Of a stretch of DNA of 42,761 nucleotides, positions 1 to 37,395 are shown in pieces. Source of the stretch: an uncultured Thermococci archaeon. Its GTDB lineage: Archaea; CAYQAE01; CAYVLA01. The notes beneath the pieces were generated by a model. It ran no database searches. It was not told the DNA's origin and saw nothing but the letters and a program-made list of their open reading frames with translations. Position 1 is the first letter of the stretch. Every line of letters begins with the position of its first letter. The position numbers and the translations under genes are program-made. The DNA lies in NCBI GenBank assembly GCA_964549615.1, contig CAZJVP010000054.1:1-42761 (forward strand), written 5' to 3'.

Positions 1-78
1 TTCACCCACAACATCCAGCGCTGCTGGGCCCACATACTGACAGAGATCGACCAGATCGCCCAACACCTCCTGGAAGTT

Positions 79-120
79 GCACAGTCTGCACAGTCTGCAC
101 AGTCTGCACAGTCTGCACAG
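79..120 (+). repeat. 9-bp tandem repeat (GCACAGTCT) x4.7, encoding AQS repeats
   Basis: Read directly: four full units at 79-114 plus GCACAG. Confidence 0.97.
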
Positions 121-138
121 CCGGCTGGGAAGAACAGA

Positions 139-210
139 AAGGCTGGCAAGGCCGGGAAGGCCGGGAAGGATCAGAGGGATCAGAGGGATCAGAGGGATCA
201 GAGGGATCAG
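139..210 (+). repeat. Adjacent 9-bp tandem repeats: AAGGCYGGS x3 (KAG), then GATCAGAGG x4.7 (DQR)
   Basis: Read directly: 139-165 and 169-210. Confidence 0.95.
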
Positions 211-740
211 AAGGATGATGGATGGAGGTGGAAGGACAGAGACGGGGAGAGGTACAGGCGGTACAGGGAGGCCGAAGCTCTAAGCAAGGGTCTGCACAGG
301 ATCTACGACAGGCTCAAAGAAGCCCTGGAGACCGATCCTCCTCCACAAGCACAAAAGAGGGATAGGCTTGCAAGGTATGGTAGGTATGGTAGGAGGGCTC
401 TGCAGCACTGGCTCGGCAGGGAGTACAGGTCTGCCAAGGTTAGGCAGTTTGTCAAGAAGCTCAGCGCTGCTTTTCCCTACCTGTTTACCGCTGTCAGGCA
501 TCCTGGTGTAGAGTTGACCAACAATCGCTCGGAGCGGGCTTTGAGGACGCTTGTCGTGCAGAGAAAGATCATAGGGACTCTCAGGAATGGGAAGGGTGTA
601 AGGATGTATGAGAGGATTCCAAGCCTTCTTGCCACATGGGAGCAGAGAGGCCTGGAGCCTGGACCCATCCCAGGCATTATCCGAAGCCCTAACCCAGAGC
701 TGGAAGGAGACCTCACACGACCAGACCAACCAAGGCGCGA

Positions 741-753
741 GCTAAATACGTAC
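741..753. repeat. Candidate right terminal inverted repeat of the IS66 element (GCTAAATACGTAC)
   Basis: The reverse complement starts GTA, as IS66 ends do, and it lies at the transposase 3' end. The left end is not in the window, so it cannot be matched. Confidence 0.5.
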
Positions 754-780
754 CCGCGTCTCTCTTCTCTAGGCTGAGTG

Positions 781-888: not shown

Positions 889-1329
889 TTGAAGGAAAAG
901 CCACCAGAATTGGAGGCCGGCAGAAACACGCACGAAAACGTCATCTACGCTTGCTTCGGCGGATTCTCAAACACCGGGATAACCGCTGCGCTGGCGAGCA
1001 TCGAAGCCGTAAAGGAGCTCGGATTGAGGAAGGCTGCCATCGGCTGCCTCGCGGGCCTGCCAACCGACGTCGCGCCGGTCTTCGCCAAGACCAAGGCGGC
1101 CAAACGGATTGTGTCCGTGGACGGTTGCCCCTTTGAGTGCAGCAGGAAGACGCTCGAAAAGGCAGGGTTCACGGTTACGAAGAGCATCGTGCTCGTCAGG
1201 GACATCGGGATGAAGAAGAAAGCCCTCCACGAGGAGGTCGAGAAAGGCTCAAAGCCGTTGATGGACTACGTATCGGAAGACGATGTCAGGCGTGCCAAGG
1301 AACTCATAATCGGGGCTGTGTGCAGCTAG
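889..1329 (+). CDS. DGC-domain putative zinc-binding protein
   Basis: Cys pattern IYACFGGFSNTG...IGCLAG...VDGCPFECSRKTLEKAGF. TTG start preceded by GGAGG. Confidence 0.9.
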   Translation: MKEKPPELEAGRNTHENVIYACFGGFSNTGITAALASIEAVKELGLRKAAIGCLAGLPTDVAPVFAKTKAAKRIVSVDGCPFECSRKTLEKAGFTVTKSIVLVRDIGMKKKALHEEVEKGSKPLMDYVSEDDVRRAKELIIGAVCS

Positions 1330-1375
1330 GGCGAACGCGCAAGAGATCCGGACACGCCTATCAGAGTTGGACGTC

Positions 1376-2077
1376 ATGGCGGGAACGGGACCATTGAAGG
1401 TCGAACCCCCCGAGGGCTATCCGCCCGAAACGGGCCGGTACCTTAGAGGCAATGACTACTCCCCGGTGGCTGTGGTGGCAATCCTTGACACCTTCGACTT
1501 CAAGATTCCTCCCGAGCTTGTGAGGCTCATCGAGGTAGCCATTGAAGCTGGAGCCGCGCTTGCAGGAACGCTTCAAACGGAGAACATCGGCATTGAGAAG
1601 TTGATCGCAAATGTGGTGGCCAATCCGAACATCAGATACTTGGTCATCTGCTGGCGAGAATCGCCTGGACACCTTCCGGCGGATGCGTTGTGTAAGCTCA
1701 TCGACAACGGGGTTGCACAGGACAAGAAGCGGACCATAGTCGGGGCCAGAGCTCCGTCGCCCTATCTCCCAAACATATCTCTGGAGGCAATCCAAAGGTT
1801 CAGAAAACAGGTGAGCATAGTCAACCTCATCTCGGAAGAGGATCCCAAGAGGGCGATGGACCCGGAGATGATAAGGAAGGCCGTCCATTGCTGCATCCAG
1901 GAGAAGCCCACCGAGTTTCTAGGCTACACCCTCCACGATCCCGGAGCATGGCCCGAGCCTGCCATCTGCAGGAAGATATCGCTGAGAATAGAGGAGCCTT
2001 GGAAAAGGGAGTTGAGCCGGAGGGAGCAGGAGATCCTAGACCGGATCAGGAAGTCCGCGAAAAGAGGCGATGGATGA
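1376..2077 (+). CDS. mtrA: Stand-alone soluble MtrA-like corrinoid protein (tetrahydromethanopterin S-methyltransferase subunit A family)
   Basis: YPPETGRYLRGNDYSPVAV, GTLQTENIGIEKLIANVVANPNIRYLVIC, ESPGHLP (candidate Co-ligand His), IVGARAPSPYLPNI and DPGAW. No C-terminal TM helix. ATG 1376 chosen; TTG 1367 is possible. Confidence 0.88.
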   Translation: MAGTGPLKVEPPEGYPPETGRYLRGNDYSPVAVVAILDTFDFKIPPELVRLIEVAIEAGAALAGTLQTENIGIEKLIANVVANPNIRYLVICWRESPGHLPADALCKLIDNGVAQDKKRTIVGARAPSPYLPNISLEAIQRFRKQVSIVNLISEEDPKRAMDPEMIRKAVHCCIQEKPTEFLGYTLHDPGAWPEPAICRKISLRIEEPWKRELSRREQEILDRIRKSAKRGDG

Positions 2078-2499
2078 CGAGTCGCGATCCTGGGGGCTCC
2101 ATCATATCCGGTTCCAAGATTCGCAAGAACGGAGAGGTTCTCAAGAGGCAAGTGCTTGTCGAGATCTTCGAAGGGGATCCCTTCGAGGGGTGCTGTGCGC
2201 CCGTGTCGGTTTCCGACAGTGCGGTTAGAGAGCTTCGCAGCCTCTTGGCCCGCCGGCAGGCGATCATCAACTCTTTGAACAATCACTTCGCCGACCGCAT
2301 TCGGATCGAGAGGATGGTTCTAAGCCGCAGAAGGCCTGCGACTTCCTATCCTGATTACCTGAAGCCCCACCTTGGCAAGGTGGACCCGCCGGTCATCTTC
2401 GTGAACGGCCGCCTCGTTTGGCACGGCAGCTTCCCGGCCGAGGGGCACTTCAAGGAAATCGTTGAAAAAGCTCTGGCGAAGGGTCTGAACGAAGAATAG
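2074..2499 (+). CDS. ArsD-like / thioredoxin-fold protein with a vicinal Cys-Cys pair
   Basis: VEIFEGDPFEGCCAP resembles ArsD IFDPAMCC, and PPVIFVNGRLVWHGSFP resembles the ArsD/thioredoxin C-terminus. ATG 2074 overlaps the mtrA stop (ATGA). Confidence 0.62.
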   Translation: MTSRDPGGSIISGSKIRKNGEVLKRQVLVEIFEGDPFEGCCAPVSVSDSAVRELRSLLARRQAIINSLNNHFADRIRIERMVLSRRRPATSYPDYLKPHLGKVDPPVIFVNGRLVWHGSFPAEGHFKEIVEKALAKGLNEE

Positions 2500-2686
2500 G
2501 GGATCTCTCAACCGCGCGATGGAGAACCGCGTCGGGTGTCTGCAGTTTCGATCGATCGGAACGGGGAATGATCCACCCTCTGTGTCTGTAAGCGCAAACT
2601 CGCTGGGGGAGTAACGACGCACCCGAACCGTCTCCGGCCCCGCCGTGGGCGCGGGCCGGCGCGCGATAACCCACGCCAATCCCTAG

Positions 2687-3518
2687 TCAAGGCCAAGACG
2701 GCAACCGGACCGAATATCGTGAAGATCTCCGGTCCGGTCCCTGAGGGGGACGGAGCGCATCGAGGAGCCTACGCATATTCCGGCCCAGAATCAGCCTCTT
2801 TGCGGATCTGGCTATCTCGGCGCAGGCAAGTGGTGCTATCCCAAGAGCGGGGTCCAGATCCGTAAGGTCGGAGCCGAACACGATCTTCTTGGGATCGACC
2901 CGATCGACGAGATCCTCCACCGGGCGGTAGCCAAGAGGCACGCACGTACACTGATACACGTTTTCCAACTCGTTCACAACGTCCGCGTAGGCCAGGCTGT
3001 GGTGCCCCATCACGAAACGAGCACTGGGATACGCACCTCCAACCTGCCCAAGATACCCCGCAACTCCCCAATCGTGCTTCAGGATCAGCATCTCCTTCTC
3101 CTCAGCGTAGGCGAAGACGGCCTGAAGCTTCGCCTCGGAGGTTCGCCTGAACTGGTACTCGCCAATGATCTTAACCCCTACAAATCGTGGCTTCCTGCAT
3201 CTCTCCAGCTCGCGGACCTAGCTCTCCCGGGCAGTTGAGGTTCAAGGTTACAAGCCCGTGGAGGCGCTCCGGATGCTTGGAGGTGCTGGCGGCGATGAGA
3301 TCGTTCCCCAGGCGCAAGTCGGGATTGACGCCGGCGAACGAGAATACACAGGCCTCGTCGATTCCAAGAGCATCCACCAGGCCTATGACCTGATCATCCC
3401 GACCGTAGGGGATGTGGTAGTAGTTGAAGAAAGCGCCCGGATGGGCATGTGCACCCACCACTAGGCAGTTCAAGGGGGCGCCCGAAAGCACGGCCTCTTT
3501 GATGGGTCCAGCCCTCAT
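2687..3518 (-). pseudogene. Frameshifted amidohydrolase_2 gene, paralog of 27445-28221
   Basis: Split across frames. FFNYYHIPYG...GIDEACVFSFAGVN and NVYQCTCVPLGYR...KIVFGSDLTDLDP are nearly identical to the intact copy. Confidence 0.88.
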
Positions 3519-4080
3519 ATCCTTGCCTCTTTCATCAGGCTCTCAAGGTTGCCCCTGCGACCATCGCCTTCTCCTCCTCCGATATCTGCGAGTAGGCAAC
3601 CATGGCCACGGCCGAGGAAGGGTCTCGATACGGGACCCTGGTGCCAAACAGCAATCGGTCAGGCCCAGACTCCCTACAAACCGAGTCGACTCCCCTCTAG
3701 AGCCAAAGCCCCGACAGATCCAACATCAGGTTCTCGCAGCGCGACATAGCCTGGTATGTTCGACGATTGGACCGGTAACGGAATTCAGAGGCTACGACGG
3801 GAAGGTCCGGATGCGCGAGGCACCTCGTAGGTGTCGCCCATGCACCACTCCGCCACATCGAAGAAGAAGCCTTTCCGGTCAAGGTTAGGATCAGCGCCCC
3901 CTGGCCCTGACTTAATCCGACTCCATGAAAGCCGGAGTCTCCCAACCGCCCAGAACTCGGTAAAGGTACGGAAGATCCGCAAAGGCGAGAGAGGTACTCT
4001 TGGAGAACAGCCTGTTCGGCTGCAGCCCATTCGAGGTGCCCACTGAAATCGAGAGAAACCGGTTGCCCAGACCCATGCCG
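3515..4080 (-). pseudogene. Degraded amidohydrolase-like gene, paralog of 28218-28985
   Basis: Fragments FFDVAEWCMGDTY, LAHPDLPVVASEFRYRSNRR..LMLDLSGLWL* (premature TAG at 3697-3699) and LLFGTRVPYRDPSSA, with frameshifts and internal deletions. Confidence 0.85.
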
Positions 4081-4298
4081 CTCGGAGTCTGGACCAGGTA
4101 GCTACCTTGCGCTTTCACGATGCCCGGACGAGCACGGGCGACTGATAAACGCAACGACATAGCATGCCTTCAGCTGACAGCGATGACCAGCAGCTCATCT
4201 CCTGCATGCTGGGAGTTTCTTGCGACCGACGGCCCCCGGCGAGACCTGCTTCCCGGGCTTAATGCACCAAAGACTGATCAGTCTGCGGTGATGCGACA

Positions 4299-4607
4299 AT
4301 GCCATCGAGGAAGACACTGCTGGACGAGGAAGACATACCAAAGCAGTGGTACAGCATACTGCCGGATCTGCATAAGCCCCTGCCTCCGACCATCGACCCG
4401 AAGACCAAGGCCCCCGGCGCCGGCATAGTGCCCAAGATATTCCCCAAAACAGATCTTAGCCCAGGAGTTCGGCCCAGAAAGATGGGTCAACATCCCGGAT
4501 GAAGTCAGAAAAGCCTACAGGCTCTGGAGGCCACTCCTCTCTTCAGGGCGGTTGGCCTGGAGAAGACCCCCAAGACGCCAGCCGAGATATACCTACAAGT
4601 ATGAGGG
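4299..4607 (+). pseudogene. trpB: 5' fragment of a TrpB2-type tryptophan synthase beta-like PLP enzyme
   Basis: LDEEDIPKQWYSILPDL..PLPP, then across frameshifts IPDEVRKAYRLWRP/TPLFRA.GLEK...AEIY/YKYEG. Truncated before the PLP lysine. Confidence 0.87.
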
Positions 4608-4691
4608 GGTCCGAGCGATCTGATGGAATATGTCTCAAAGGACGATGTCGATCGTGCGAAGAAGATCATAATAGAAGCCATCACGGAGTGA
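4608..4691 (+). pseudogene. 3' remnant of a second DGC-domain gene
   Basis: 4623-4691 encodes MEYVSKDDVDRAKKIIIEAITE*, against MDYVSEDDVRRAKELIIGAVCS* at the end of 889-1329. Confidence 0.75.
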
Positions 4692-4857
4692 CCGAAGGGT
4701 TGAGCCCCGGCGCACGTCCTTCGCGCATCTTGCGTCCTGCGGACCGGCATAAGCGCATGTCCGGCTCGACCGCCCAAGAGCGAGCCGTGATGATCTCTCA
4801 GGCAAGGGTCGCGAACCCAGCCTTTGAAACATTTTTGAGAGAGATTTCGTATCGAAG

Positions 4858-5964
4858 ATGATGAATATGAAACCCTCGGCCCCCAAGCGCGAGCTCAGCG
4901 TCTTCGAGAAGTACCTCACGATCTGGGTCGGTCTCTGCATACTGGCTGGCATCGGCCTAGGCAAGGTCGCGCCCGGCCTATCAACCGCGCTGGATAGGCT
5001 GTCGGTTGCCCAGGTCTCCATACCCATCGCGGTATGCCTGTTCTTCATGATGTACCCCATAATGGTCAAGATCGACTTCAGCGAGGTCGTCAAGGCGGGG
5101 AAGACCCCGAAGCCGGTGGCACTCACGCTGTTCGCCAACTGGGCGGTGAAGCCCTTCACCATGTTCCTGATCGCAACCTTCTTCCTTTCCGTCTTGTTCA
5201 AAGACCTTCTGCCTGGAACCGAGATCGTCAAAACCGGTGCCGAAGTCTACCTTTACCGCTCCTACATATCGGGGGCCATACTCCTCGGCATCGCGCCGTG
5301 TACGGCCATGGTTCTGATGTGGAGCTATCTCGCCAGGGGGAACGACGGCCACACGCTCGTCATGGTCGCCATCAACTCGTTGAGCATGCTCTTCCTCTAC
5401 GCTCCCCTGGGTGGATTCCTCCTGGGAGTTAACCGCATGCCCATACCGTGGGAGACGATAGTTCTGTCCGTCACAATCTACGTTGCCCTTCCCCTGATCG
5501 CCGGCTACTACTCCCGGCGCGAGCTCATCAAGAGAAAGGGAATCGAGTGGTTCAGGGAGAGATTCGTGGGCAGGCTGACGACGGTGGCGATCGTAGCGCT
5601 CCTAGCCACGCTCGTCATACTCTTCTCGCTGAAGGGCAAGATGATCGTCGAACGTCCGCAGACGATACTTCTGATTGCCGTGCCGCTCTTCATCCAGACA
5701 TGGCTGATCTTCCTATTGACATACGGTGCCGCAAGGCTCTTGAAACTCACGTACGAGGACGCCGCTCCTTCGGCGATGATCGGCGCGAGCAACCATTTCG
5801 AGGTCGCCATTGCCACGGCGACCACCCTTTACGGGCTCAGCTCGGGGGCGGCATTGGCGACGGTGGTTGGGGTCCTCATCGAAGTGCCGCTGATGCTGAC
5901 GCTCGTGAAGTTCTGCCTGCGAACGCGCGGATGGTTCCGCAGCAGCCGGGCACTGCAACCATAG
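4858..5964 (+). CDS. acr3: Acr3-family arsenite efflux permease
   Basis: [41 protein letters not shown] and [10 protein letters not shown] motifs; about 10 hydrophobic segments. Confidence 0.96.
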
Positions 5965-6047
5965 GATTCCTAACCGTTCCAGCGCGGTTCTTTGGCGATT
6001 CCCCAGCCAGCTGTCGCGAGGCTGTAGGTTGGCTCATCGGAGCCGCC

Positions 6048-6473
6048 CTAGCAACGAGGGGCGGCCACCTGAGCCAGCGATCGAACGGCGTCAAGGACGG
6101 AGGTATCGACGAGCGAGTAGAAAACCCACTTCCCCCGCCTAGACTCCTTGATCAGACCTGCCTCCCTGAGGATGCCAAGATGGTGGGAGGCTGAGGGCTG
6201 GGATCGGTTGATCAGAACCATGACCTCGCACACGCAAAGCTCCCCTTCGGACCCGATCGCCTTCAGTATCGCGACCCTCATCGGATCTGCCATGGCCCTA
6301 GCGATCATCGCGACCTTCGAGGCGTTCTGGTCGGGTGCCATAGACCTGAGCTTGCGTCGAATCTTCTCAACATCGGCCGCCGAGGCCCGTCTTCTCCCCG
6401 TCCGTGCCTCCACGCAGCGGGCGAGCCTCTCGTCAGCCTTCGATGCCACGAATCCTGATAGCGTTTCCAGCAC
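6048..6473 (-). CDS. arsR: ArsR/SmtB metalloregulator
   Basis: AMADPMRVAIL...ELCVCE...SQPSASHHLGILREAGLI...RGKWVFYSL; ELCVC As(III)-binding box. Start uncertain. Confidence 0.93.
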   Translation of the reverse strand: MLETLSGFVASKADERLARCVEARTGRRRASAADVEKIRRKLRSMAPDQNASKVAMIARAMADPMRVAILKAIGSEGELCVCEVMVLINRSQPSASHHLGILREAGLIKESRRGKWVFYSLVDTSVLDAVRSLAQVAAPRC

Positions 6474-6535: not shown

Positions 6536-7624
6536 CTAGAGCCGACGCTCGATGTCCCGGTAGCCCTCCTCGCTGTACTCAAAGAACCTCCTATAGGAAG
6601 CGCAGAAATCGGTTCGGCTTGGATGAAGCCGATCTGGCCTGTGATACCGACACCCACCATAGCAGAGGTCCAGCCATGGGCAGTCCTTGCACTCACGCGG
6701 GAGCCCCAGCTTTGCCCGTCCGAACTCCTCAAACGGGGTGCTCTCGGATATCCTGCCGAGCGAGCTTTCCATGAGGTTCCCCATGAGCATGCCCCGATCC
6801 ACGAAGAAGTCGCAAGGGTAGACGTCCCCGTTGTATTCCACGACCAAGTACTCGCCGCACCTGGGACCCAGCGTGCAGAGTCCACCCGCAGCGCCCATCC
6901 TCGCGGCCAGAACCGAGTTGAAGAGCCGGATGTAGACGTTTGGGAAGTCTTCTCTCCACAGATCGAACATGCGGCAGAGGAACTCACCGTACTGGTCGGC
7001 GGTGACGTTGAACGGTGCCGGGTTGCCGGCTGCATCGAGTTCACGGCAGGGGACGAACTGGAGGTACCGCACGCCCCGATCGACGAAGAACCGGTATATG
7101 TCCTCCCATCGGCAAGCACTGAGATTGGTTACGACCGAGAGAACATTGAACTCCACGCGGTCCTCCTTCAACAGCTCCAGACCCGCCATCGCCCTGTCGA
7201 AGGTTGGCCGCCCCCGCCGCGTTCGCCTGTAGGCGTTATGGATGTCGGGTGGGCCGTCCACGCTTATGCCCACGAGGAACTTGTACCTTTTGAAGAACCT
7301 GGTCCAACTTTCCGACAGCAGGGTGCCATTGGTCTGGAAAGCATTCGAAACCGTATGCCCCCTTCCGTGGGCCTCCTGCAGCTTGACCGCCCGGAGATAG
7401 AAATCAAGGCCGGCCAGCAACGGCTCCCCGCCCTGCCAGCTGAACGATGCGTGCTCGGTCGATATCGCAAGGTACTGCGAGATCATGGCTTCCAGGACCT
7501 TCTCGCTCATGCACGTCCGGGGGCCCGGATGGTATAGCTCCGATCTCCTGGCATAGAAGCAGTACTCGCAGGCAAGATTACATCGGGCTGAAACGGGTTT
7601 CACCAAGAGGCTGGAGGGAAGCAT
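6536..7624 (-). CDS. Anaerobic sulfatase maturase-type radical SAM/SPASM protein
   Basis: LLVKPVSARCNLACEYCFY, WQGGEPLL, QTNGTLL, VEYNGDVYPCDFFV and CKDCPWLDLCYGGC. Start placed at ATG 7624 rather than 7729. Confidence 0.9.
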   Translation of the reverse strand: MLPSSLLVKPVSARCNLACEYCFYARRSELYHPGPRTCMSEKVLEAMISQYLAISTEHASFSWQGGEPLLAGLDFYLRAVKLQEAHGRGHTVSNAFQTNGTLLSESWTRFFKRYKFLVGISVDGPPDIHNAYRRTRRGRPTFDRAMAGLELLKEDRVEFNVLSVVTNLSACRWEDIYRFFVDRGVRYLQFVPCRELDAAGNPAPFNVTADQYGEFLCRMFDLWREDFPNVYIRLFNSVLAARMGAAGGLCTLGPRCGEYLVVEYNGDVYPCDFFVDRGMLMGNLMESSLGRISESTPFEEFGRAKLGLPRECKDCPWLDLCYGGCRYHRPDRLHPSRTDFCASYRRFFEYSEEGYRDIERRL

Positions 7625-7752
7625 CACGTAGTGCTCTGGCAGCTGCCTAAAATTGTTACACGGATAGCCGCATGCGGGCCGTCCGCGTTCCGCGTTCCCC
7701 GAGCCAAAGTTTTCAAGCGATGAGCGCATATTACCTGGAGGAGGCAGGATGA

Positions 7753-10613: not shown

Positions 10614-13600
10614 ATGTCTTCTAGCCTTGGCTGGCTCATCGTGAGTGCGGCCGTCCTGCTGGCCCTGATCGGGGCCCAGGGAGTCTGCGCCTACCTGAGC
10701 TACGTGCCGATGAACGGTGCCTTCGAAAGATACGATGACGCAGGGAGGCCGCTCAACTGGACCCTTCTCAGTGCCCCATCGTCAGACGGCATGAAGACGA
10801 CCGCGGCTCTGGTGAATGACTCGTACAAGGGGCTGAAGGCACTCTACCTTGGTAGCCTTGGGACGGGCCGCGCCTCGGCGAGGATCGAGATGCCCATCGA
10901 GTACAATGCTCTCCGAATGCTCCATTCCGGGACCGCCGAGTTCTACTACAAGGTCCTGTCGTCGGGGGCCTCCGGGAGGAACATCGACTTCAGGCTCGAC
11001 CTCTTTGACCAGCACGGCAAGGTCGTGGCCGGCGTCCAGTTCTCGCCTCCCAGCTCCCACGTTGCGGATGGCATGTGGCACAGGCACACCTTCAGGCTGG
11101 ACATCAGGGACTCGAGGACCGCGAAGTACATGGCCCTGTCCTTCAGCGTGAACGGGGCAGAAGAGAAGGCGCCCGGGTCCTGGATCGTGGACGAGCTCCA
11201 GATATTCGAGGCGCCGGCAGCGGTCAGGATAGGGTTGATCACGTGCACTCGGGCTCTCGTTGAGGTCGGCAAGCCCTTCGCCATCAGCTTCAACCTGACC
11301 AACGAGGGAGGTGCCTTCTTCCACGACCTTCACTCCCGGATCATCCTTCCCCGAGGCCTTCGGGTTGTTGGTGAAGAGCCAGAGAGGATCTTGGGCGTTG
11401 TGGAGCCGGGATTGGCCTACGAGGTCAGCTGGAACCTGGTCGCCGACCGGCCCGGGACATACCCCATAGAGATCAACATCTTCAGCCCCAGTGACGAGGC
11501 ATTCAATCCCGGTCCTCTGGCCACCGTGGTGGGGGCTGGTGGTTTCTCCCATCCGGCGTCAAGGCCGAATCGAGCAGTGTGCTCCGTCACCCAAGAGGAG
11601 ATAGTTCTCGAGAACCCGTTCCTGCGCCTGGTCTTCCCGGTCGCCGAGGAGGGCTTTGGGCTGTTCGGCCTCCAGTGCTGGGACGGGTTCTGGAGGGACA
11701 TGGCGGTTTCAATGCCTCTGGGACATGCACTCTTCGTTGCCCATCCTGGCAAGAAGAGTTTGCTTCTGCTGACCGCCCAGGCGTACGACTATGGACTCGC
11801 ATCAGCGGGCGCCTGGCTTTCGCTCCAAGGATGGATTGCGGATGATGACGGGGTGACCTGGGCAGTCTCCTATCGGTTTGACCTTGCAAACGATGCTGCG
11901 CACGTCGACATCAGCTTCTCGGTCCGGACCAGTGCGAACAGGAAGATCCTACGCCTATCGGGTCCGCAGATTCTCGCTGGAGAGGGGAGCTTTGGCACGG
12001 CGAGGGGTGAAGGCCTCTTCTGCGGCCTTGAGTACCTGCTTCCGGGAGAAAGTTCGTCGGGAACGGACTTCGTCTACCCGCCCCGGAACCTCAGGGCCGT
12101 GCCACATCCGCTGAAGGTAACGATTCCCTTAATGGCGGTGGAACAGGGCAACTGCAGCATTGCGCTATCCTGGGATCCGCTCGAAAGATGGGACGGGACA
12201 AACGCCCTGATCTCGGCCAAGTATCTCTCGCCGAACTGGCCGCGGAACCAATCCAACCACGTCATGGCCCTCTTCGTCCCCACGATCCCCCGCTGGGTGA
12301 ACGAGAACGAAGATGAGGCGACAACCCCTTATGATCTGGACGGGCCCGTGACGATCCACTGCCAGGTGTTCTGCAAGGCGAATACGGATGTGCTCGGGAC
12401 GCTCCTCTGGTGGCTTCGCGAACACGGGGTGCCATCCCCGCCCGACAAGCCTCGAAGCTTCGAGGAGACCATTGACCTCTGCGTAGCTTGCTTCAAGGAT
12501 ATCTGCTGGGTCGAGTCGGCCAAGGCTTGGAGACATACCCACCTCTCCGACCCGGCTTGGATCTTCTGGGACCCACTTGTGGCGCTTCCCCTGTGGCACC
12601 AATCGGCCCTGACCGACGATGCGGGCTTGCGAAGCGAGATCCGGGCCCAGGTGATGGAGGCTCTGGCAGCGACGGGTGGATGGGGGGTGGACATGGACCT
12701 GGCGCTCCACCTCGGCGAGGTTGAAAAGGCCCTGGCCAGCGGGTACAACTATGCCCAAGCCCTCATCGACTCTCAGAACGACGACGGATCCTGGCCCTAC
12801 ACGCCCAGCGACAAGAGACATGAACTGCTTGGGCGTCCCGGAGATACGTCGTCCGGCTGGACCGCCAGCAAGGCGAGGTTTCTCCTCAAATTCGGCAGGA
12901 TCACGGGCGATCCCAGCTCGATCAATGCAGGCCTGAAAGCACTCGAGTACCTGGACACCCAGAGAAGACCAGAAGGCGCGCAGACCTGGGAACTTCAGCT
13001 CCACGTGCCCGATGTGCTGGCTTCTTCGTACGTCCTAGAATGCTACCTAGAGGCGTACCGGATAACGCGAAACCAGGACTACCTGGAGAGGGCGAGGTTC
13101 TGGGCTCTCAGCGGGTTGCCCTTCATCTATCTCTGGAACCCACCCGACAGGCCGATCATGAGATACGGATCCATACCCGTCTTCGGCGCCACATGGTTCG
13201 AGAGCCCGTGGTTCGGCGTCATCGTCCAGTGGAACGGCTTGGACTACGCCTACAAGCTTCTGGACCTGTCCAGATACGATGATTCCCTGCCGTGGAGGAC
13301 GATCGCGGAGGGCATCACTGTCTGCGGGATGCAGATGCAGCGCTACCCGGGCGGCCCGCACGCCGAGGTTTCCGGCATGTACCCCGATGCCTACAGCGCT
13401 GTCAAGGGGGACGATGCATACTATTTCGACATCAACCCTCGCTTCATCGCCCTTTGCGCCTTCGGGCTTATGGGATACGACGAGACGACCCAGACCGAGA
13501 TCCTCCCCGTTGGCGAGGGGAGGATTCACATCAGCACGGTGGGAAGGATCGGGAACTCGAGCTTGCAGGGTGGTCTGCTCACCTTCGACGTCCAGTATCC

Positions 13601-14294
13601 AGTGAGCGATTCATCGTATGCCGTCATCGGCGGCGTCTCCAGGCCCTCCGCGGTCACGGTCAACGGCGAAAGCATAGCTGAGAGCCAGGACCTTTCCAAT
13701 ATCGTCCAAGGCTGGACATACAGGAGCGACGGCATCCTAGTCATCAAGATGGTCCACGCGGTGGTCGACCGCATCGTGGTGGCGGGAGTCCGGTACCAGC
13801 CGAGCATGCGCTTTGCGCCGGAGCCCATCTGGGAGTTCGAGTCGTACGATTCCGAAGGCTGGATGAACACCAACATGTTGACGCCCTTCCTGGTCCAGAA
13901 CGGAACCCTTGCCACGAGATCGACCGGCCCCGACCCGTACATGGTCGGGCCGAACATCCAAGTCCAGGCGAGAACGGATGACATCGTGACGATCAGGATG
14001 AAGCTCTCTGCAGGACAATATGCGCAGATTTTCTGGATCCGTAGGGGCGCCGGCCAGTACAGCGAATCGAAGAGCATGGTCTTCCCGGTGAACCCCGATG
14101 GGCAGTTCCACACCTACGAGGTGTGCGTCGGGCGGAGCCCAGAATGGAACGGGACGATCACCCAGATCAGGCTCGATCCGACGAACGTCGCCGACGCCTT
14201 AGTCGAGATCGACTACATCAGGATACCCGAGCCACTATTCGGATTGCTCGCGCTCCTCGTCATTGGACTAGCTGGGAGGAAAAGTTGTGGTTAG
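10614..14294 (+). CDS. Large secreted multidomain protein (CBM-like, Ig/CARDB-like, alpha/alpha-toroid, CBM-like) with a PEP-CTERM-like anchor; putative glycan-active enzyme
   Basis: Signal peptide; NLTNEGG Ig-like segment; helical core YLEAYRITRNQDYLERA; C-terminal DGQFHTY..WNGTITQIRLDP; tail IPEPLFGLLALLVIGLAGRK. Confidence 0.7.
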   Translation: MSSSLGWLIVSAAVLLALIGAQGVCAYLSYVPMNGAFERYDDAGRPLNWTLLSAPSSDGMKTTAALVNDSYKGLKALYLGSLGTGRASARIEMPIEYNALRMLHSGTAEFYYKVLSSGASGRNIDFRLDLFDQHGKVVAGVQFSPPSSHVADGMWHRHTFRLDIRDSRTAKYMALSFSVNGAEEKAPGSWIVDELQIFEAPAAVRIGLITCTRALVEVGKPFAISFNLTNEGGAFFHDLHSRIILPRGLRVVGEEPERILGVVEPGLAYEVSWNLVADRPGTYPIEINIFSPSDEAFNPGPLATVVGAGGFSHPASRPNRAVCSVTQEEIVLENPFLRLVFPVAEEGFGLFGLQCWDGFWRDMAVSMPLGHALFVAHPGKKSLLLLTAQAYDYGLASAGAWLSLQGWIADDDGVTWAVSYRFDLANDAAHVDISFSVRTSANRKILRLSGPQILAGEGSFGTARGEGLFCGLEYLLPGESSSGTDFVYPPRNLRAVPHPLKVTIPLMAVEQGNCSIALSWDPLERWDGTNALISAKYLSPNWPRNQSNHVMALFVPTIPRWVNENEDEATTPYDLDGPVTIHCQVFCKANTDVLGTLLWWLREHGVPSPPDKPRSFEETIDLCVACFKDICWVESAKAWRHTHLSDPAWIFWDPLVALPLWHQSALTDDAGLRSEIRAQVMEALAATGGWGVDMDLALHLGEVEKALASGYNYAQALIDSQNDDGSWPYTPSDKRHELLGRPGDTSSGWTASKARFLLKFGRITGDPSSINAGLKALEYLDTQRRPEGAQTWELQLHVPDVLASSYVLECYLEAYRITRNQDYLERARFWALSGLPFIYLWNPPDRPIMRYGSIPVFGATWFESPWFGVIVQWNGLDYAYKLLDLSRYDDSLPWRTIAEGITVCGMQMQRYPGGPHAEVSGMYPDAYSAVKGDDAYYFDINPRFIALCAFGLMGYDETTQTEILPVGEGRIHISTVGRIGNSSLQGGLLTFDVQYPVSDSSYAVIGGVSRPSAVTVNGESIAESQDLSNIVQGWTYRSDGILVIKMVHAVVDRIVVAGVRYQPSMRFAPEPIWEFESYDSEGWMNTNMLTPFLVQNGTLATRSTGPDPYMVGPNIQVQARTDDIVTIRMKLSAGQYAQIFWIRRGAGQYSESKSMVFPVNPDGQFHTYEVCVGRSPEWNGTITQIRLDPTNVADALVEIDYIRIPEPLFGLLALLVIGLAGRKSCG

Positions 14295-27444: not shown

Positions 27445-28221
27445 TCAAGCCCGCTTTGCCCTGTCGAGAACCCTGCGCATGTTCTTTCCCAAAATGAGCC
27501 TCTTCTTGGATTCCGGTATCTCCGCGTAGGCTATCGGGGCTAATCCCAGCCCTGGATCAAGATCGGTGAGGTCGGAGCCGAAGACTATCTTCCTGGGATC
27601 GATGCGCTCGACCATCTCCTCCACCTGGCGATACCCGAGCGGAACGCAGGTACACTGGTAGACGTTTTCAACACCGTTTGCGACCTCTTCGTACGCCAGC
27701 GAGTAGTGCCCGATCACGAAGCATGCCTCCGGGTTTCTCAAAGCGATCCCTTTCAGGTAGCCGGGCTCTCCCCAGTGGTGGTTGAGCATGACCATCCCGT
27801 GCTCGGATGCATACTCATAGACCGGGTCAAGCGCCGTCTGTTCCGTCTTCCTGAACTGGTACTCCCCTATGAGCTTGATCCCCACAAAACCCATCCCTCT
27901 GCACCTCTCCAGCTCCGGAATCCAGGTCTCAGGATAGTTGAGGTTCAACGTGACAAACCCGTGGAGGCGCTTCGGGAACTTTGAGATAGCGGCGGCGATG
28001 AGATCGTTGCCCAGGCGGAAATCTGAGTTGACCCCCGCGAAGGAGAACACGCAGGCCTCGTCGATGCCGAAAGCGTCCATGTGGCGGACCACATCATGTG
28101 CCTGCCCATACGGGATGTGGTAGTAGTTGAAGAAGCCCCCAAGATGGGCATGGGCGTCTATCACGAGGCAGTCCAAGGGAGTCCCCTTCATTGCGGCGGC
28201 CTTGATCGACGACCTACTCAT
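27445..28221 (-). CDS. Amidohydrolase_2 family metal-dependent hydrolase
   Basis: VIDAHAHLG, GIKL, LNHHW, VIGH and IVFGSD. Confidence 0.9.
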   Translation of the reverse strand: MSRSSIKAAAMKGTPLDCLVIDAHAHLGGFFNYYHIPYGQAHDVVRHMDAFGIDEACVFSFAGVNSDFRLGNDLIAAAISKFPKRLHGFVTLNLNYPETWIPELERCRGMGFVGIKLIGEYQFRKTEQTALDPVYEYASEHGMVMLNHHWGEPGYLKGIALRNPEACFVIGHYSLAYEEVANGVENVYQCTCVPLGYRQVEEMVERIDPRKIVFGSDLTDLDPGLGLAPIAYAEIPESKKRLILGKNMRRVLDRAKRA

Positions 28222-28985
28222 TCCCTGACGCCCCTGATCAGCCGCTCCAAGTTGCCACCCGCAACCATTGCTTTCTCCTCATCGGAGACCTTCGAGTAGT
28301 TCACCATCCCGAGCGCCGACGACGGGTCTCGGTAAGGAGTCCGGGTGCCGAAAAACAGCCGATCGGCTCCGAACTCCTCGCAGACGGAATCGACGGCCCT
28401 GTACAGCCAGAGCCCGGACAGATCCAGCATCAGGTTGTCGCACCGAGCCATCGCTTGGTACATCCGGCGGTTTGACCTGTAGCGGTACTCGGACACGATC
28501 ACCGGCAAATCCGGGTGCGCAAGGCAGACCTCGACAACGTCCCCCCACCTCACGAGGTCCGAGCCAAGGGAGGGGGAGAAGAAATCGAGCACCACGGGGA
28601 TTCTATGCTCCTCCAACACGCCGTAGATGTCGCCCACGCACCACTCCCCGACGTCGAAGAAGTAGTACTCGGGCAACAACTTCGCCACCCGGCTTCCAGA
28701 CGAAAGCATCCTTGCCACGCCCCGTTCCGGGTCGCCTCCCACCGTGGACGGCAGGAACACCCAGCAGGGGGCAAGGGCTCCAGTACCCCTGGCCGCCCTT
28801 GCAGTCATCGGGTTGCCTAGCTCGGGGCTGTGCTCCATCGCGACGGCATGACAGATAAGGGCCTTCTCTATGCCGTATCTCCTCATCTCGCCCAAGAGCC
28901 CCTCCGCGGTCCGGAGCGCCTCGGGAACCCGCCTGTTGTGAATCCCGAAGCTGCAGGTCAGATCGAAGAAGCTTGGACCTGCCAT
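28218..28985 (-). CDS. Amidohydrolase-fold protein lacking the HxH motif
   Basis: FFDLTCSFG, HPDLPVIV, FGADRLFFGT.TPY and VAGGNLERL. Stop overlaps the next start (ATGA). Confidence 0.85.
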   Translation of the reverse strand: MAGPSFFDLTCSFGIHNRRVPEALRTAEGLLGEMRRYGIEKALICHAVAMEHSPELGNPMTARAARGTGALAPCWVFLPSTVGGDPERGVARMLSSGSRVAKLLPEYYFFDVGEWCVGDIYGVLEEHRIPVVLDFFSPSLGSDLVRWGDVVEVCLAHPDLPVIVSEYRYRSNRRMYQAMARCDNLMLDLSGLWLYRAVDSVCEEFGADRLFFGTRTPYRDPSSALGMVNYSKVSDEEKAMVAGGNLERLIRGVRE

Positions 28986-33743: not shown

Positions 33744-35006
33744 TTGTCAGAGAAGATGCACGTCGACAAGGAGAAGGTCTTGGACTGGTTGGAGTTCAAG
33801 TTCGACAGGCGGATAGGCACCTACATCAACAAGAACACGAACCTCCCTCTGACGCTCTTCTACGACGACGAGAAGGATGAGCTCTGTCTGCTGGACCAGA
33901 ACAAGCTGCCCTATGAGGTGTCCGTCTGGAGGACAGATGACTGGAAGAAGGGCGCCGCCATCGGGATAGGGAGCATGGTCACCCGGGGTTCCCAGGCGAT
34001 CGGCGTGACGGGCGCATATTGTGTGCTTCTCGCCGCGGCCAAGTCGAAAAAGTCGACCAAGAAGAGGACCGTCGAGCAGATACTGGCGGCGGCCGAGAAG
34101 ATAAAGAGCGCCAGGCCAACCGCCGTGAACCTTTCTTGGGCGGTCGACAGGATGTGCGATGCGGCGAGGAACGCCCTGAAGAGGGCCGGGGACGTCTACG
34201 AACGTCTGAAACAGGAGGCCGACGACATCTTCGTTGAGGACATCTTCATCAGCAGAGCGCTCGCGGAGAACGGGAGCCGTCTCATCGCAAGCGGGGACGT
34301 CATACTGACCCACTGCAACGCAGGATCCCTCGCAACCACCTACGGCGGGAGCGCGCTGGGGGCGGTTGAGTACGCGGTCAGCCAAGGCAAGGATGTGAAG
34401 GTGATCTCCAAGGAGACGAGGCCTAGGAGCCAGGGCTTCAAGCTGACGCTCTGGGAGCTCATGACCGCGGGAGTGCCGGTGGCCGGCATAACCGACAACA
34501 TGGTCGCATCGAGCTTCGAGAAGTTCGGCATCAACCGGGTCCTGGTCGGGGCGGACAGGATAACCAAGGACGGATGCGTGGCAAACAAGGTCGGCACGAA
34601 CGACATCGCAAGGATGGTGGCCTTCTACAGCGTCCCCTTCGTGGTTGCCGCCAGCTACTCGACCCTGGACATGCAGCACACGGGCAAGGAGATCCCCATC
34701 GAGCAGAGGAGCTACGAAGAGATCTCCATGCCCTATCACTACGAGGCGCTCGAGAAGAAGAAGCAGGGGCTGATAGGGCCGGATGCGCTGAGCTTCTGGC
34801 CGCCGCCCGACAGAATCTCCGACGAAATGGGAAAGGGGAAGATCGTCCTCTACAACCCGGCCTTCGATGTGACCGACTCGAGGCTGATCAGCAACATCGT
34901 GTTGGATCTGGGAATCTATAGGCCCGAGCGGATCTGCACCATAGACGAGAAGACCATATCGGAACGCATTTCGGCCATAGTGGCCAGGTACTCCAAGGCG
35001 CTCTAG
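33744..35006 (+). CDS. mtnA: Methylthioribose-1-phosphate isomerase / eIF2B-related family
   Basis: LLDQNKLP, MVTRGSQAIG, RPTAVNL.WA, LTHCNAGSLAT, ETRP, VGADRI..G.VANKVGT and NPAFDVT. Confidence 0.85.
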   Translation: MSEKMHVDKEKVLDWLEFKFDRRIGTYINKNTNLPLTLFYDDEKDELCLLDQNKLPYEVSVWRTDDWKKGAAIGIGSMVTRGSQAIGVTGAYCVLLAAAKSKKSTKKRTVEQILAAAEKIKSARPTAVNLSWAVDRMCDAARNALKRAGDVYERLKQEADDIFVEDIFISRALAENGSRLIASGDVILTHCNAGSLATTYGGSALGAVEYAVSQGKDVKVISKETRPRSQGFKLTLWELMTAGVPVAGITDNMVASSFEKFGINRVLVGADRITKDGCVANKVGTNDIARMVAFYSVPFVVAASYSTLDMQHTGKEIPIEQRSYEEISMPYHYEALEKKKQGLIGPDALSFWPPPDRISDEMGKGKIVLYNPAFDVTDSRLISNIVLDLGIYRPERICTIDEKTISERISAIVARYSKAL

Positions 35007-36250
35007 GCCCTGTACCGCACGTAGCCGGGGCTTGATGTCTCCTCCCTGATGATCTCCTCCAGCTTCTGGGATAGTATCTCCACGGGAATGTCCTGTATGC
35101 TGATCCGCGTGGACATTCCGCCAGTATCCTTCAAGCCCACCTCGGTCTTCGCTTCGATGAAGCCCAAGTTGCCCAGATCCTTAAGGTAGGAGGCAAAGGA
35201 GGTGTATGACCTGGGCGGCTCGTTGTGCTGCTCGCACAACCTTTCGTATTCGGAGAACACCTCCCCCGATAGGATGCTCGGAGAGTCCCTGAGGAGGCTC
35301 GCCGCGGCCAGGTAGGTGAGCTTCTGGTGCAGGTTGAGCTCGCGAAGTTCGGTCTCTGAGACGACGGGCAACACCTCGGCCTTCGCGGCCCTCACATCCT
35401 CGAAGGTGACCGCCGACCGACCGTCCTTGTCGGCCCGCTTGCCCGCATAGTAGATCATCTCGAGGGCGAATCTGCAGTCGCCGGTCTGCTCCGCGATGTC
35501 GGCGGTGAACTTCACCACGTCATCCGATACCGTTCCCTCGATGAAGGCCTCGCTCGTCCTGTATCGCAGGATGTCGAAGAGCTGGGAAGCGTTGTACTTC
35601 TCCAGTTTCACCACGTTCTTCTTCAGCGAGCTGCGCGTCGGCTCGTCGAGCTTGTAGTAGAACGAGAAGTCGCGGCTGATGAGTATCATGCTGTAGCGGG
35701 CCACGTTGTCAAGGCGATGGTTCTCGAGCGGCCGGGAGAGGAAGTAGACTATGTCCTTCCCGTCCTTGCTCATGTAGTAGTCTATCTCGTCGAGGCAGAC
35801 GATGAGGATCGTGTTGGAGTGGACGAGGAGTTCGTCGACCGCCTTCTGGACGTACTCGGCCGGATAGCCCCTCAGCTCGAGCTCGGGCTGCAGTTCCTTA
35901 GCCATTGATGCCCAGATCATGTAGTCTGTCCTTTCCTTCCTGCAGTTGATGTGGATGTAGCGGAGGTTGATGCCCCGCCTTGCGGCAGCCCTCTCTATGC
36001 TGATCCCGAATCTCTTGGCCAGCATCGTCTTGCCGGTACCGATCCCGCCTAGGAGCGTCACGGTCTGAGCTACCGGCGCCGGAGAGAGCGCGCCTTTGAA
36101 GTACTCGGCCAGCTGCTTGAGTTCGTTCTCCCTGTGGGGCAGGTACTGGGGCACGTACGCGGCGTCGAGCTTGGATTCGTCCCGAAAAATGGTCGACTTG
36201 CCCAGGATCCCCTCAACCATCTTGTCGACTTCGCCCATCCTCCCGCTCAT
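35003..36250 (-). CDS. cdc6: Orc1/Cdc6 replication initiator AAA+ ATPase
   Basis: YVPQYLPHRE, Walker A GGIGTGKT, HINC, Walker B LDEID, GDCRFAL and a C-terminal winged helix. Confidence 0.95.
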   Translation of the reverse strand: MSGRMGEVDKMVEGILGKSTIFRDESKLDAAYVPQYLPHRENELKQLAEYFKGALSPAPVAQTVTLLGGIGTGKTMLAKRFGISIERAAARRGINLRYIHINCRKERTDYMIWASMAKELQPELELRGYPAEYVQKAVDELLVHSNTILIVCLDEIDYYMSKDGKDIVYFLSRPLENHRLDNVARYSMILISRDFSFYYKLDEPTRSSLKKNVVKLEKYNASQLFDILRYRTSEAFIEGTVSDDVVKFTADIAEQTGDCRFALEMIYYAGKRADKDGRSAVTFEDVRAAKAEVLPVVSETELRELNLHQKLTYLAAASLLRDSPSILSGEVFSEYERLCEQHNEPPRSYTSFASYLKDLGNLGFIEAKTEVGLKDTGGMSTRISIQDIPVEILSQKLEEIIREETSSPGYVRYRA

Positions 36251-36438: not shown

Positions 36439-37395
36439 ATGTCCACGGAAATACAAGACCTTCCTGGAGTGGGGCCGAGGACGGCCGAGGGGTTGGAGAA
36501 GGCTGGCTATTACTCGATCGAAAGCCTAGCGGTGGCCTCTCCCAGCGAGATATGCGAGATTTCGGGCATATCCGACGCAATCGCCTCAAAGATCATAAGC
36601 GCAGCCAAGGAACGGGCCAGCCACCTCGTCAGATGGTACAGGGGGTTGGAGATAATGGAACGTCGGCAGGCCTTGGCCAGACTGACCACCGGGTGCAAGG
36701 AGCTTGATGACATGCTCGGGGGCGGGTTGGAACCCGGATCGATAACCGAGTTCTACGGTGAGTACGGCTCGGGCAAGTCCCAGATCTGCCACCAACTTGC
36801 AGTAAACGTGCAACTGCCGCCGGAAAGCGGGGGCTTGGGCGGCAAAGTCCTCTGGATAGATACGGAGGCGACCTTCCGTCCAGAGCGGGTGCACGAGATG
36901 GCCACTCATCTGGGCATCGACCCTGAAAAAGCCCTGGATAACATCCTCACCGCGCGAGCTTACAACGCCGCCCACCAGATGCTTCTCCTGGAGAACGCCG
37001 AGAAGATGATAAAGGAAGAGAACGTCAAGCTCCTCATAATCGACAGCCTTATGGTCCACTTCCGATCCGAGTTCATAGGGCGCGGGAAGCTGGCCGAAAG
37101 GCAGCAGAAGCTTGCCCAGCACCTTTCCAAGCTTCACAGGCTCACCGACATATATCAGCTAGTCACCGTCGTGACCAACCAGGTCATGTCGCGACCGGAC
37201 GTGCTGTTTGGAGATCCCATCGCGCCCATAGGAGGGCACGTCCTTGGCCATTCGACGACCACGCGGGTATACCTCAGGAAGTCCAAAGGTGACATCCGCG
37301 TTGGGAGGGTCGTCGACTCCCCATGCCTCCCGCTGGGAGAGGCGAGGTTCACCATCACCAAGGAAGGTCTGCAGGACGTGGAGGCAACGTCCTGA
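36439..37395 (+). CDS. radA: DNA repair and recombination protein RadA
   Basis: Hh[63 protein letters not shown] and PIGGHVLGH. No intein. Confidence 0.98.

Follow-up and report, generated by a model that had tools for sequence, protein, structure and literature searches.

The 42,761-nucleotide contig CAZJVP010000054.1 of an uncultured Thermococci archaeon (assembly GCA_964549615.1; the whole contig is called the window below) carries near its start an intact operon of three co-oriented genes (positions 889-2499), which encode a DGC-domain protein, a soluble MtrA-like protein of the corrinoid type and an ArsD-like protein, and which is followed by the arsenic-resistance (ars) genes acr3 and arsR. 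We read this region as a partly decayed ars island of an anaerobic, non-methanogenic archaeon, in which the MtrA-like protein would be a cobamide protein transferring methyl groups at thiol-bound arsenic; on comparative evidence, this reading is evenly poised between right and wrong. Profile and neighbourhood searches indicate that each gene of the operon is from an uncharacterised family that recurs in ars clusters of anaerobes.

The operon opens with the DGC gene (889-1329, PF08859, 146 amino acids), continues with the MtrA-like gene (1367-2077, PF04208, 236 amino acids) and ends with the ArsD-like gene (2074-2499, 141 amino acids), which is assigned by family and fold evidence. All three lie on the plus strand, and an ATGA at 2074-2077 overlaps the stop codon of the MtrA-like gene with the start codon of the ArsD-like gene. 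An initial annotation had named these genes together with acr3 and arsR; profile matches found all of them where it had placed them, and both the order of the operon genes and the ATGA overlap were confirmed. It was also right that the window holds no arsM and no other mtr gene; a check of the whole genome (G000; 3.2 Mb, 99.5% complete) found two mtrH genes, on contigs C30 and C100.

The MtrA-like protein is the single PF04208 match of the genome (138.6 bits, gathering score 25). It scores 166.9 against NF002126, a short soluble MtrA subfamily with a cut-off of 161, and stays below the canonical equivalog TIGR01111 (129 bits, cut-off 249.15). It matches the MtrA structure PDB 5LAA at E 2.4e-34, with about 40% identity as read from the alignment, and thus shares the PF04208 Rossmann-type fold family with MtrA (5LAA, 5L8X, 8Q3V) and its cytoplasmic homologues. 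His102 and Glu72 align with the cobalt-ligand histidine (His84) and the hydrogen-bonded glutamate (Glu54) of 5LAA, a pair described for MtrA in the consulted portion of Wagner et al. 2016 (PMC4915002). Both residues are 100% conserved in the archaeal, bacterial ars-linked, long and canonical groups defined below, and the TENxGIEK block of MtrA is also present. No membrane helix was detected, in that no 19-residue window has a Kyte-Doolittle mean above 1.6, and the protein is soluble, as are the cytoplasmic MtrA homologues of methanogens. The alignment and the hydropathy profile thus bear out two remarks of the initial annotation, that a candidate cobalt-ligand His is retained and that a transmembrane anchor is lacking. 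Compared with 5LAA, the protein carries 11 extra residues inserted after strand 1 and, at its C terminus, a conserved extension about 50 residues long; its archaeal clade reads CWRES where MtrA has CGSEV, and the glutamate of the MtrA meander has given way to Pro in the archaeal clade (50%) and to Phe in the bacterial clade (78%), with the proline, aromatic residue and asparagine kept. We consider it likely that the MtrA-like protein binds a corrinoid.

A protein search recovered 3201 relatives of the MtrA-like protein among 3827 candidates, and the closest relatives listed, 60-78% identical, come from Bathyarchaeia, Hadarchaeales and Asgard archaea. Scanning species-representative genomes gave 596 matching stretches, 411 of them encoding relatives; the best 80 loci were kept, and their neighbourhoods were scored with tblastn and by grouping the called open reading frames (ORFs) into clusters. 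We counted as core ars genes acr3, the PF03773 permease gene, thioredoxin-type arsC and arsM within the fetched flank (up to 7 kb). Such a gene accompanies 39 of the 66 soluble-clade loci (all those outside the canonical and intermediate rows) and none of the 14 canonical or intermediate loci, whereas mtrH, which served as a control of the method, was found in 8/14 canonical loci and 0/66 soluble-clade loci. Within the soluble clade, acr3 was counted in 28 loci, the PF03773 permease in 27, arsC in 10, arsM in 15 and arsR in 31; the other 27 of the 66 lack a core ars gene, many of them being on short contigs. Unlike canonical MtrA genes, the MtrA-like gene of the window has an ars context and no mtrB-H neighbours. 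MtrA-like genes in ars operons carry at least ten phylum-level labels, and the chance of finding acr3 in a 15-kb stretch is by simple arithmetic below 1%, given one acr3 per 3.2 Mb. Because of the contrast between 39/66 for core ars genes and 0/66 for mtrH, we regard the ars link of the soluble clade as real and broad, and the family as very probably a true component of ars islands. The idea of the initial annotation, which was to be given up if close MtrA homologues showed no enrichment beside ars or DGC genes, therefore survives these counts.

A tree built with IQ-TREE from 75 rows (the window and 74 domain rows, two of them from locus L016) separates a canonical methanogen MtrA group (11 rows, support 100/98) from a bacterial clade (28 rows, 100/99), a 'long' clade, whose members are extended at the C terminus and often carry TusA (15 rows, 99/93), and the archaeal clade that holds the window (12 rows, 98/80). 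A locus gave a row if its match fell in a called ORF and aligned over 120 residues or more; loci left out include L011, L032, L039, L040, L054, L064 and L075. Core ars genes accompany 27 of 28 loci of the bacterial clade, 5 of the 12 remaining loci and 6 of 12 archaeal-clade loci other than the window (L011 being added by identity), the last figure rising to 8 of 12 once arsR, DGC and ArsD-like genes are included. The long clade probably functions differently, because it shows almost no ars linkage (1/14 loci). Its proteins (P0139, P0143, P0159 and P0180; loci L037, L046, L049, L052 and L053) are 414-534 amino acids long, often begin with TusA, and have an extension ending in the Cys-rich motif CQKTAGNCxIGxGCF.

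In the mechanism that we propose, the MtrA-like protein would bind a cobamide His-on and cycle between Co(I) and methyl-Co(III) like MtrA, as the conserved His-on site argues. The natural acceptor of MtrA is a thiolate. As(III), which ArsM methylates in formally the same way, is likewise a soft nucleophile. Thiol-bound As(III) would accordingly take the place of coenzyme M as the soft-nucleophile partner or, alternatively, the reaction would run in reverse and remove methyl from a methylarsenical. Holding or passing on As(III) within the island would fall to the Cys-rich DGC and ArsD-like proteins, and export of the inorganic product to Acr3. Reductive activation would be left to a separate donor, since the window lineage lacks the N-terminal 2x[4Fe-4S] ferredoxin domain that is found in 89 of the 120 closest listed homologues (about three in four). 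Methyl chemistry fits the islands, because arsM is the commonest immediate neighbour of MtrA-like genes (within 500 nt in 12 loci; 292-307 bits, above the NCBIfam arsenite methyltransferase cut-off of 263), and because the islands have an organoarsenical flavour (ArsP-type permease, ArsE- and ArsF-like genes, FMN reductase). Transfer of methyl to or from arsenic by the MtrA-like protein is nevertheless a tentative proposal, with somewhat less than an even chance of being correct. Slightly less probable again is the wider idea that soluble MtrA-like proteins are the missing oxygen-independent enzymes of arsenic methyl-cycling, putting methyl onto As(III) or taking it off methylarsenicals, with DGC, ArsD-like, DUF169 and small Fe-S proteins as an anaerobe-specific As(III)-handling toolkit around them.

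The name 'ArsD-like', which the third gene had received in the initial annotation, holds for its family and fold and fails for the ORF itself: taken alone, the ORF matches no Pfam family, gives no PF06953 match at E<=1, and comes closest to Thioredoxin_3 (0.12). An exhaustive HMMER search assembled a family of 17 representatives with the motif EIYEGDPFxGxCCGP ... LPFIFxDGxLVxxGxFPS, of which EIxEGDPFxGxCC is the conserved N-terminal part; 15 of 18 aligned members match PF06953 at E<=1 (best 4.3e-06), and the top PDB matches of the family profile are ArsD (E 0.025). The structural model (pLDDT 87.2) likewise has ArsD as its top matches (3kgk_B/3mwh_B, Z 9.2, rmsd 3.2-3.3, 86 residues aligned), with thioredoxins at Z 7-8, that is, within about 1 Z of ArsD. 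Because the window protein misses PF06953 while 15 of 18 aligned members match it, we class the protein, from its sequence and model, as a distant relative of ArsD and not a PF06953 member. It has in common with ArsD (PF06953; 3KGK, 3MWH, 3KTB) a thioredoxin fold without CxxC, a vicinal Cys-Cys after strand 1, and the C-terminal block LPxxxxDGxxVxxGxFP. The pair, C40-C41, is conserved in at least 90% of rows. The As(III) site of ArsD is a Cys12-Cys13-Cys18 triad, and no third conserved Cys follows C40-C41 in the alignment. Nor does the genome offer the ArsA partner, since only P-loop stubs match it (model positions 2-47 of 305), or a canonical ArsD.

Scanning metagenome contigs for the ArsD-like family gave 228 relatives, of which 80 loci were kept; neighbours were tallied in the 47 loci of at least 4 kb, the 33 shorter ones being omitted. 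The commonest neighbour is arsR (39/47), followed by a small Cys-rich protein, 'c29' (30/47), the PF03773 permease (21/47), acr3 (17/47), DUF169 (11/47), arsC (10/47), DGC (9/47) and arsM (3/47). The c29 protein has about 127 amino acids and an FCTGECPG motif (L013:4585-4968, L007:3981-4358, and metagenome loci L109-L188). It belongs to no Pfam family, resembles the HdrA N-terminus only weakly in NCBIfam, and often occurs with small ferredoxins; we take it to be an unnamed ars-island family of predicted Fe-S type. DUF169 (PF02596) recurs beside MtrA-like or ArsD-like genes (L017, L019, L025, G004:C3 (L104) and L142), and in L142-type operons fills the slot between DGC and the ArsD-like gene that the MtrA-like gene holds in the window.

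The DGC protein scores 63.4 bits against PF08859 (cut-off 27), and its C22, C53, C80 and C84 are invariant in an alignment of 10 rows. Its model (pLDDT 90.3) is an alpha/beta/alpha sandwich, for which Foldseek returned nothing at E<=0.001 and a wide structural search only generic alpha/beta/alpha matches (best Z 8.2), so that no function can be read from the fold. A permease-DGC order occurs in L086 and L026, the former being an ars operon without MtrA. In the portion consulted of a preprint on P. mercurii ND132 (bioRxiv 10.1101/2022.10.17.512643), a DGC gene closes an arsenic-induced ArsR-ArsP-ArsE operon. That operon C (ArsR-ArsP-ArsE-DGC) is headed by ArsR and combines a PF08859 protein with a PF03773 permease and a thioredoxin-like protein and, unlike the window operon, is described there without an MtrA-like or ArsD-like gene. 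The DGC and ArsD-like families are thus each linked to ars genes independently of the MtrA-like family. The absence of an MtrA-like gene from all 80 ArsD-like loci indicates that the three families are separate modules of the ars toolkit of anaerobes and not an obligate trio or complex. Of the corrinoid metalloid module that the initial annotation had envisaged, the ars link of the soluble MtrA clade stands, and the division of labour among MtrA, DGC, ArsD-like protein and Acr3 lacks support as it was put. Delivery of the metalloid to MtrA by the DGC and ArsD-like proteins finds no support in the 80 ArsD-like loci or in the DGC genes that do without MtrA in L086 and the ND132 operon. A role of MtrA as the methylase of the module runs into the bacterial loci, where the MtrA-like gene lies beside SAM-dependent (S-adenosylmethionine-dependent) arsM, and beside or fused to thioredoxin-type arsC, and so appears to accompany the known methylase, not to replace it.

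Those bacterial loci, in which a second methylase is not obviously needed, also weigh against our own reading of the island, and so do several further observations. None of the soluble-clade genes (0/66) has a methyl-donor or methyl-acceptor methyltransferase such as MtrH next to it. The window protein reads APSPYLPN in place of the meander consensus GAIPF-Y/F-XEN and has no ferredoxin domain of its own, and no CobS was found in the 99.5% complete genome. In the archaeal clade itself, the window excluded, core ars genes reach only 6/12, and in four archaeal-clade loci, three of them labelled Thorarchaeota, a glyoxalase is the sole tallied neighbour. The companions of the window operon are scarce in MtrA-like loci (ArsD-like 3/66, DGC 8/66) and, from the other side, ArsD-like loci lack MtrA-like genes altogether (0/80). 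By tblastn alone 36 loci are ars-linked, and because 21 of these 36 are from Planctomycetota, the locus rows are kin and not independent, so that Fisher tests overstate the evidence. Among the five genomes of the window's phylum that were covered, a number too small for a phyletic test of DGC, one (G004) has the order DUF169-MtrA-ArsR-ArsM, which speaks for the ars link, but its MtrA-like copy is a pseudogene, which speaks against our reading. The island of the window is itself broken by pseudogenes and IS66 debris. As a separate matter, we tried the glyoxalase beside the Thorarchaeota-type copies as ArsI and rejected it (NCBIfam 19.4 bits vs 116).

The main rival to methyl transfer is reductive Co(I) chemistry, in which a corrinoid fed by a ferredoxin or flavin would reduce As(V), a pentavalent methylarsenical, or As(III) to arsine. 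B12 together with two [4Fe-4S] clusters performs reductive chemistry in reductive dehalogenases and QueG, and the N-terminal clusters of most close homologues (the 89/120 above) would suit such a role. So would the separate ferredoxins and small Cys-rich HdrA-like protein in the operons of L007 and L013, the fusions in one ORF to thioredoxin-type arsenate reductase (arsC, LMWP) in L030 and L022, and the FMN-reductase genes that adjoin MtrA-like genes in 8 loci. However, the His-on ligand pair is of the methyl-carrier type, the window copy lacks a ferredoxin domain, the gene most often found as immediate neighbour is arsM, and a ferredoxin domain would be expected just as much if an oxidised methyl carrier had to be reactivated. 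Ferredoxin fusions, separate ferredoxins and ArsC fusions thus fit methyl-carrier reactivation and Co(I) reduction of arsenic equally well, and we consider the reductive alternative unlikely.

Quite improbable, in our judgement, is that the MtrA-like protein is a C1 or methylotrophic leftover that carries methyl between tetrahydromethanopterin (H4MPT) and a thiol, its proximity to ars genes being incidental. The two mtrH genes and several small B12-binding proteins of the genome speak for it, as do two papers (PMC11291895, which includes an Atabeyarchaeia pair, and PMC9723677) whose consulted portions interpret such genes as C1 methyltransferases, that is, as MtrA/MtrAH methyl-transfer enzymes. 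The Atabeyarchaeia tandem pair, however, corresponds to our locus L016 and lies 3.5-4.2 kb from arsR and acr3. Moreover, mtrH is found in the flanks of canonical and not of soluble-clade loci, core ars genes and arsC fusions accompany the latter, and the mtrH loci of the window's own genome are on other contigs. The ars linkage corrects the published view of MtrA-like genes in Asgard and Bathyarchaeia genomes as methanogenic C1 remnants. The genome has no mcrA and no CobS and has 7 B12-binding matches over cut-off, so that we take the organism for a probable non-methanogen that makes use of corrinoids and is likely to obtain them by salvage. Its two mtrH genes and lack of mcrA would make it a probable cobamide-salvaging, non-methanogenic user of methyl groups. 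The window is archaeal, as it encodes Orc1/Cdc6 and RadA.

The genes downstream of the operon are intact acr3 (4858-5964, plus strand), which covers model positions 1-327 of 327 of TIGR00832 (399.7 bits, cut-off 282.8) and is single-copy in the genome by tblastn, and arsR (6048-6473, minus strand), with HTH_5 at 4.5e-12, NF033788 at 86 (cut-off 55) and a CVC site (ELCVCE) in its helix-turn-helix region. The latter is predicted to be an As(III)-type ArsR/SmtB repressor. The initial annotation had them follow the operon after a scar; they are present, but arsR is convergent with acr3 and co-directional with a radical SAM gene (6536-7729). No inverted repeat that could be an ArsR operator was found upstream of DGC, arsR or the radical SAM gene, and the four upstream regions compared have no k-mer of 8 or more in common. 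The radical SAM gene was considered as conserved island synteny and dropped, since its matches in L007 and L005 are weak (about 32-33% over 120-129 amino acids) and lie in different proteins.

The scar itself is about 2.3 kb of pseudogene debris between the operon and acr3. On the minus strand it contains, by tblastx, an amidohydrolase pseudogene at 2687-3518 in two ORF pieces (2687-3091 and 3171-3518; 59-62% identity to the intact gene at 27445-28221; Amidohydro_2 20.6 bits, under cut-off) and a second amidohydrolase remnant at 3544-3890, 77% identical to window positions 28248-28526. An Amidohydro_2 gene pair is thus duplicated in the window, intact at 27445-28985 and decayed at 2687-3890. 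On the plus strand follow a remnant copy of a TrpB2-like 5' end with upstream DNA (3898-4607, tblastx match C49:2612-3330; 4299-4502 gives 32.9 bits against the TrpB-like model NF009057, cut-off 366) and the 3'-end remnant of a second DGC gene (4539-4688; tblastn E 1e-5, one in-frame stop). The DGC remnant lies about 170 nt upstream of acr3, is also matched by the DGC of L026 and L007, and recalls L026 (Dehalococcoidia), where an intact DGC gene precedes Acr3. Upstream of the operon, at the contig end, is an IS66-family transposase fragment (1-777, plus strand; PF03050 at 3.8e-09) with a 90% identical copy at C20:269520-270134 and pieces beside ArsC on C84. Near its start the window fragment encodes short tandem peptide repeats (SAQ, KAG, DQR), and further IS66-element fragments lie at C84:34851-35055 and C21:5507-5656. 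Fragments of this element adjoin all three ars loci of the genome, namely the window operon, the ArsP/ArsR island on C20, where the genome's ArsE-like thioredoxin and PF03773 permease genes lie beside arsR genes, and arsC on C84. For this reason the ars island looks to have been scattered by IS66-type rearrangement, of which the element is the likely cause.

Such damage raises the question of whether the window operon, regardless of the role of the family in other genomes, survives only as the non-functional remnant of a broken-up island. The IS66 fragment directly upstream, the debris downstream, the destroyed second DGC gene, the ars genes scattered on C20 and C84 beside IS66 pieces, and the G004 pseudogene all point that way. 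We consider it hardly likely, however, as the three ORFs are intact and comparison with a sister copy suggests constraint. This closest public relative (L004:6523-8115; MtrA-like protein 96% identical) likewise has the DGC-MtrA-ArsD-like operon with its ATGA overlap, about 5 kb from an ArsE-like thioredoxin gene and a PF03773 permease gene. Against it the ratio of nonsynonymous to synonymous divergence (dN/dS) is 0.13 (DGC), 0.27 and 0.29 for the three genes, which suggests that purifying selection acts on the operon. Also preserved are the ATGA overlap, a GGAGG site and an AT-rich promoter-like element, the last being the sole upstream element common to the window operon and the sister locus. 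Synonymous divergence (dS) from L004 is uneven (MtrA-like 0.07, DGC 0.40, ArsD-like 0.65), as is nucleotide identity (97%, 89% and 77%), a pattern suggestive of either recent recombination or some unusual constraint acting on the middle gene.

A role as an electron or thiol-redox helper of thioredoxin-dependent ars enzymes (ArsC, ArsM or a CcdA/DsbD relay), not acting on arsenic directly, would suit the arsC genes within 60 nt of or fused to MtrA-like genes (5 loci), the arsM neighbours, the DsbD_TM genes 40-85 nt upstream (6 loci) and the thioredoxin-like and ArsF-family genes of MtrA-like islands, but seems very unlikely, given that the ars-linked clades conserve no Cys pair beyond those also in canonical MtrA, that to our knowledge no corrinoid protein acts as a disulfide reductase, and that supposed DsbD-MtrA fusions of 447 amino acids in L061 and L065 are an ORF-calling artefact in which the upstream DsbD is read through in another frame. 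An apparent ArsM fusion, P0199 (class-I SAM methyltransferase and MtrA-like), was rejected as well, as it reaches 46 bits against 263 for the ArsM model.

We know of no characterised ars enzyme that uses a corrinoid; all use SAM, thiols, flavin or oxygen. ArsM (SAM-dependent, NF008823) is the known enzyme for the proposed reaction and the commonest immediate neighbour of bacterial MtrA-like genes, but its fold and cofactor are unrelated to those of the MtrA-like protein; the best arsM candidate of the window's genome (C3) matches over only about 140 residues of generic methyltransferase core. The closest functional likeness is to HgcA and HgcB, a corrinoid protein and a 2x[4Fe-4S] ferredoxin that methylate Hg(II) and are described, in the portion consulted of the ND132 preprint (bioRxiv 10.1101/2022.10.17.512643), as lying near ars genes under ArsR-like control. 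On paper both systems join a corrinoid carrier to a two-cluster ferredoxin, or pair the two, and both sit in metal(loid) islands of the ArsR type in anaerobes. As far as the comparison went, however, HgcA is no homologue: it has a CFeSP-type domain and a membrane part, according to that source, whereas the MtrA-like protein is MtrA-type, soluble and His-on by alignment, and its window copy lacks a ferredoxin; we use the comparison as a working analogy only.

In paddy soils, the demethylation of methylarsenicals under anaerobic conditions is well documented and has been linked to methylotrophic methanogens, with the enzymes unresolved, according to the consulted portions of PMC10579292 and bioRxiv 10.64898/2026.08.27.747368. 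The latter uses generic corrinoid methyltransferase genes as proxies, and Mtr goes unmentioned in those portions. The literature that we searched, with subscription journals and supplements outside its scope, contained no paper linking the MtrA-like family to ars genes. The family offers a concrete, clonable candidate for the question of anaerobic arsenic methyl-cycling and, if the proposal is right, would be for arsenic what HgcAB is for mercury and would stand as the anaerobic counterpart of ArsM or ArsI. What the window adds is an archaeal MtrA-like form without the ferredoxin (Fer4) domain, in an operon that also encodes DGC and a member of the ArsD-like family delineated here; companions that behave as independent ars modules; and an island break-up probably driven by IS66. 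It also flags three more unnamed ars-island families, DGC, the ArsD-like Cys-Cys proteins and the small Cys-rich protein.

Two observations concern the rest of the window. The Orc1/Cdc6 gene (35003-36250, minus strand) and the RadA gene (36439-37395, plus strand) are divergent, and the 188-nt spacer between them could be a replication origin. A 1226-amino-acid ORF at 10614-14294, with no Pfam match at E<=1e-5, directly precedes a GH9 cellulase-type gene and lies amid GFO/IDH/MocA oxidoreductase genes.

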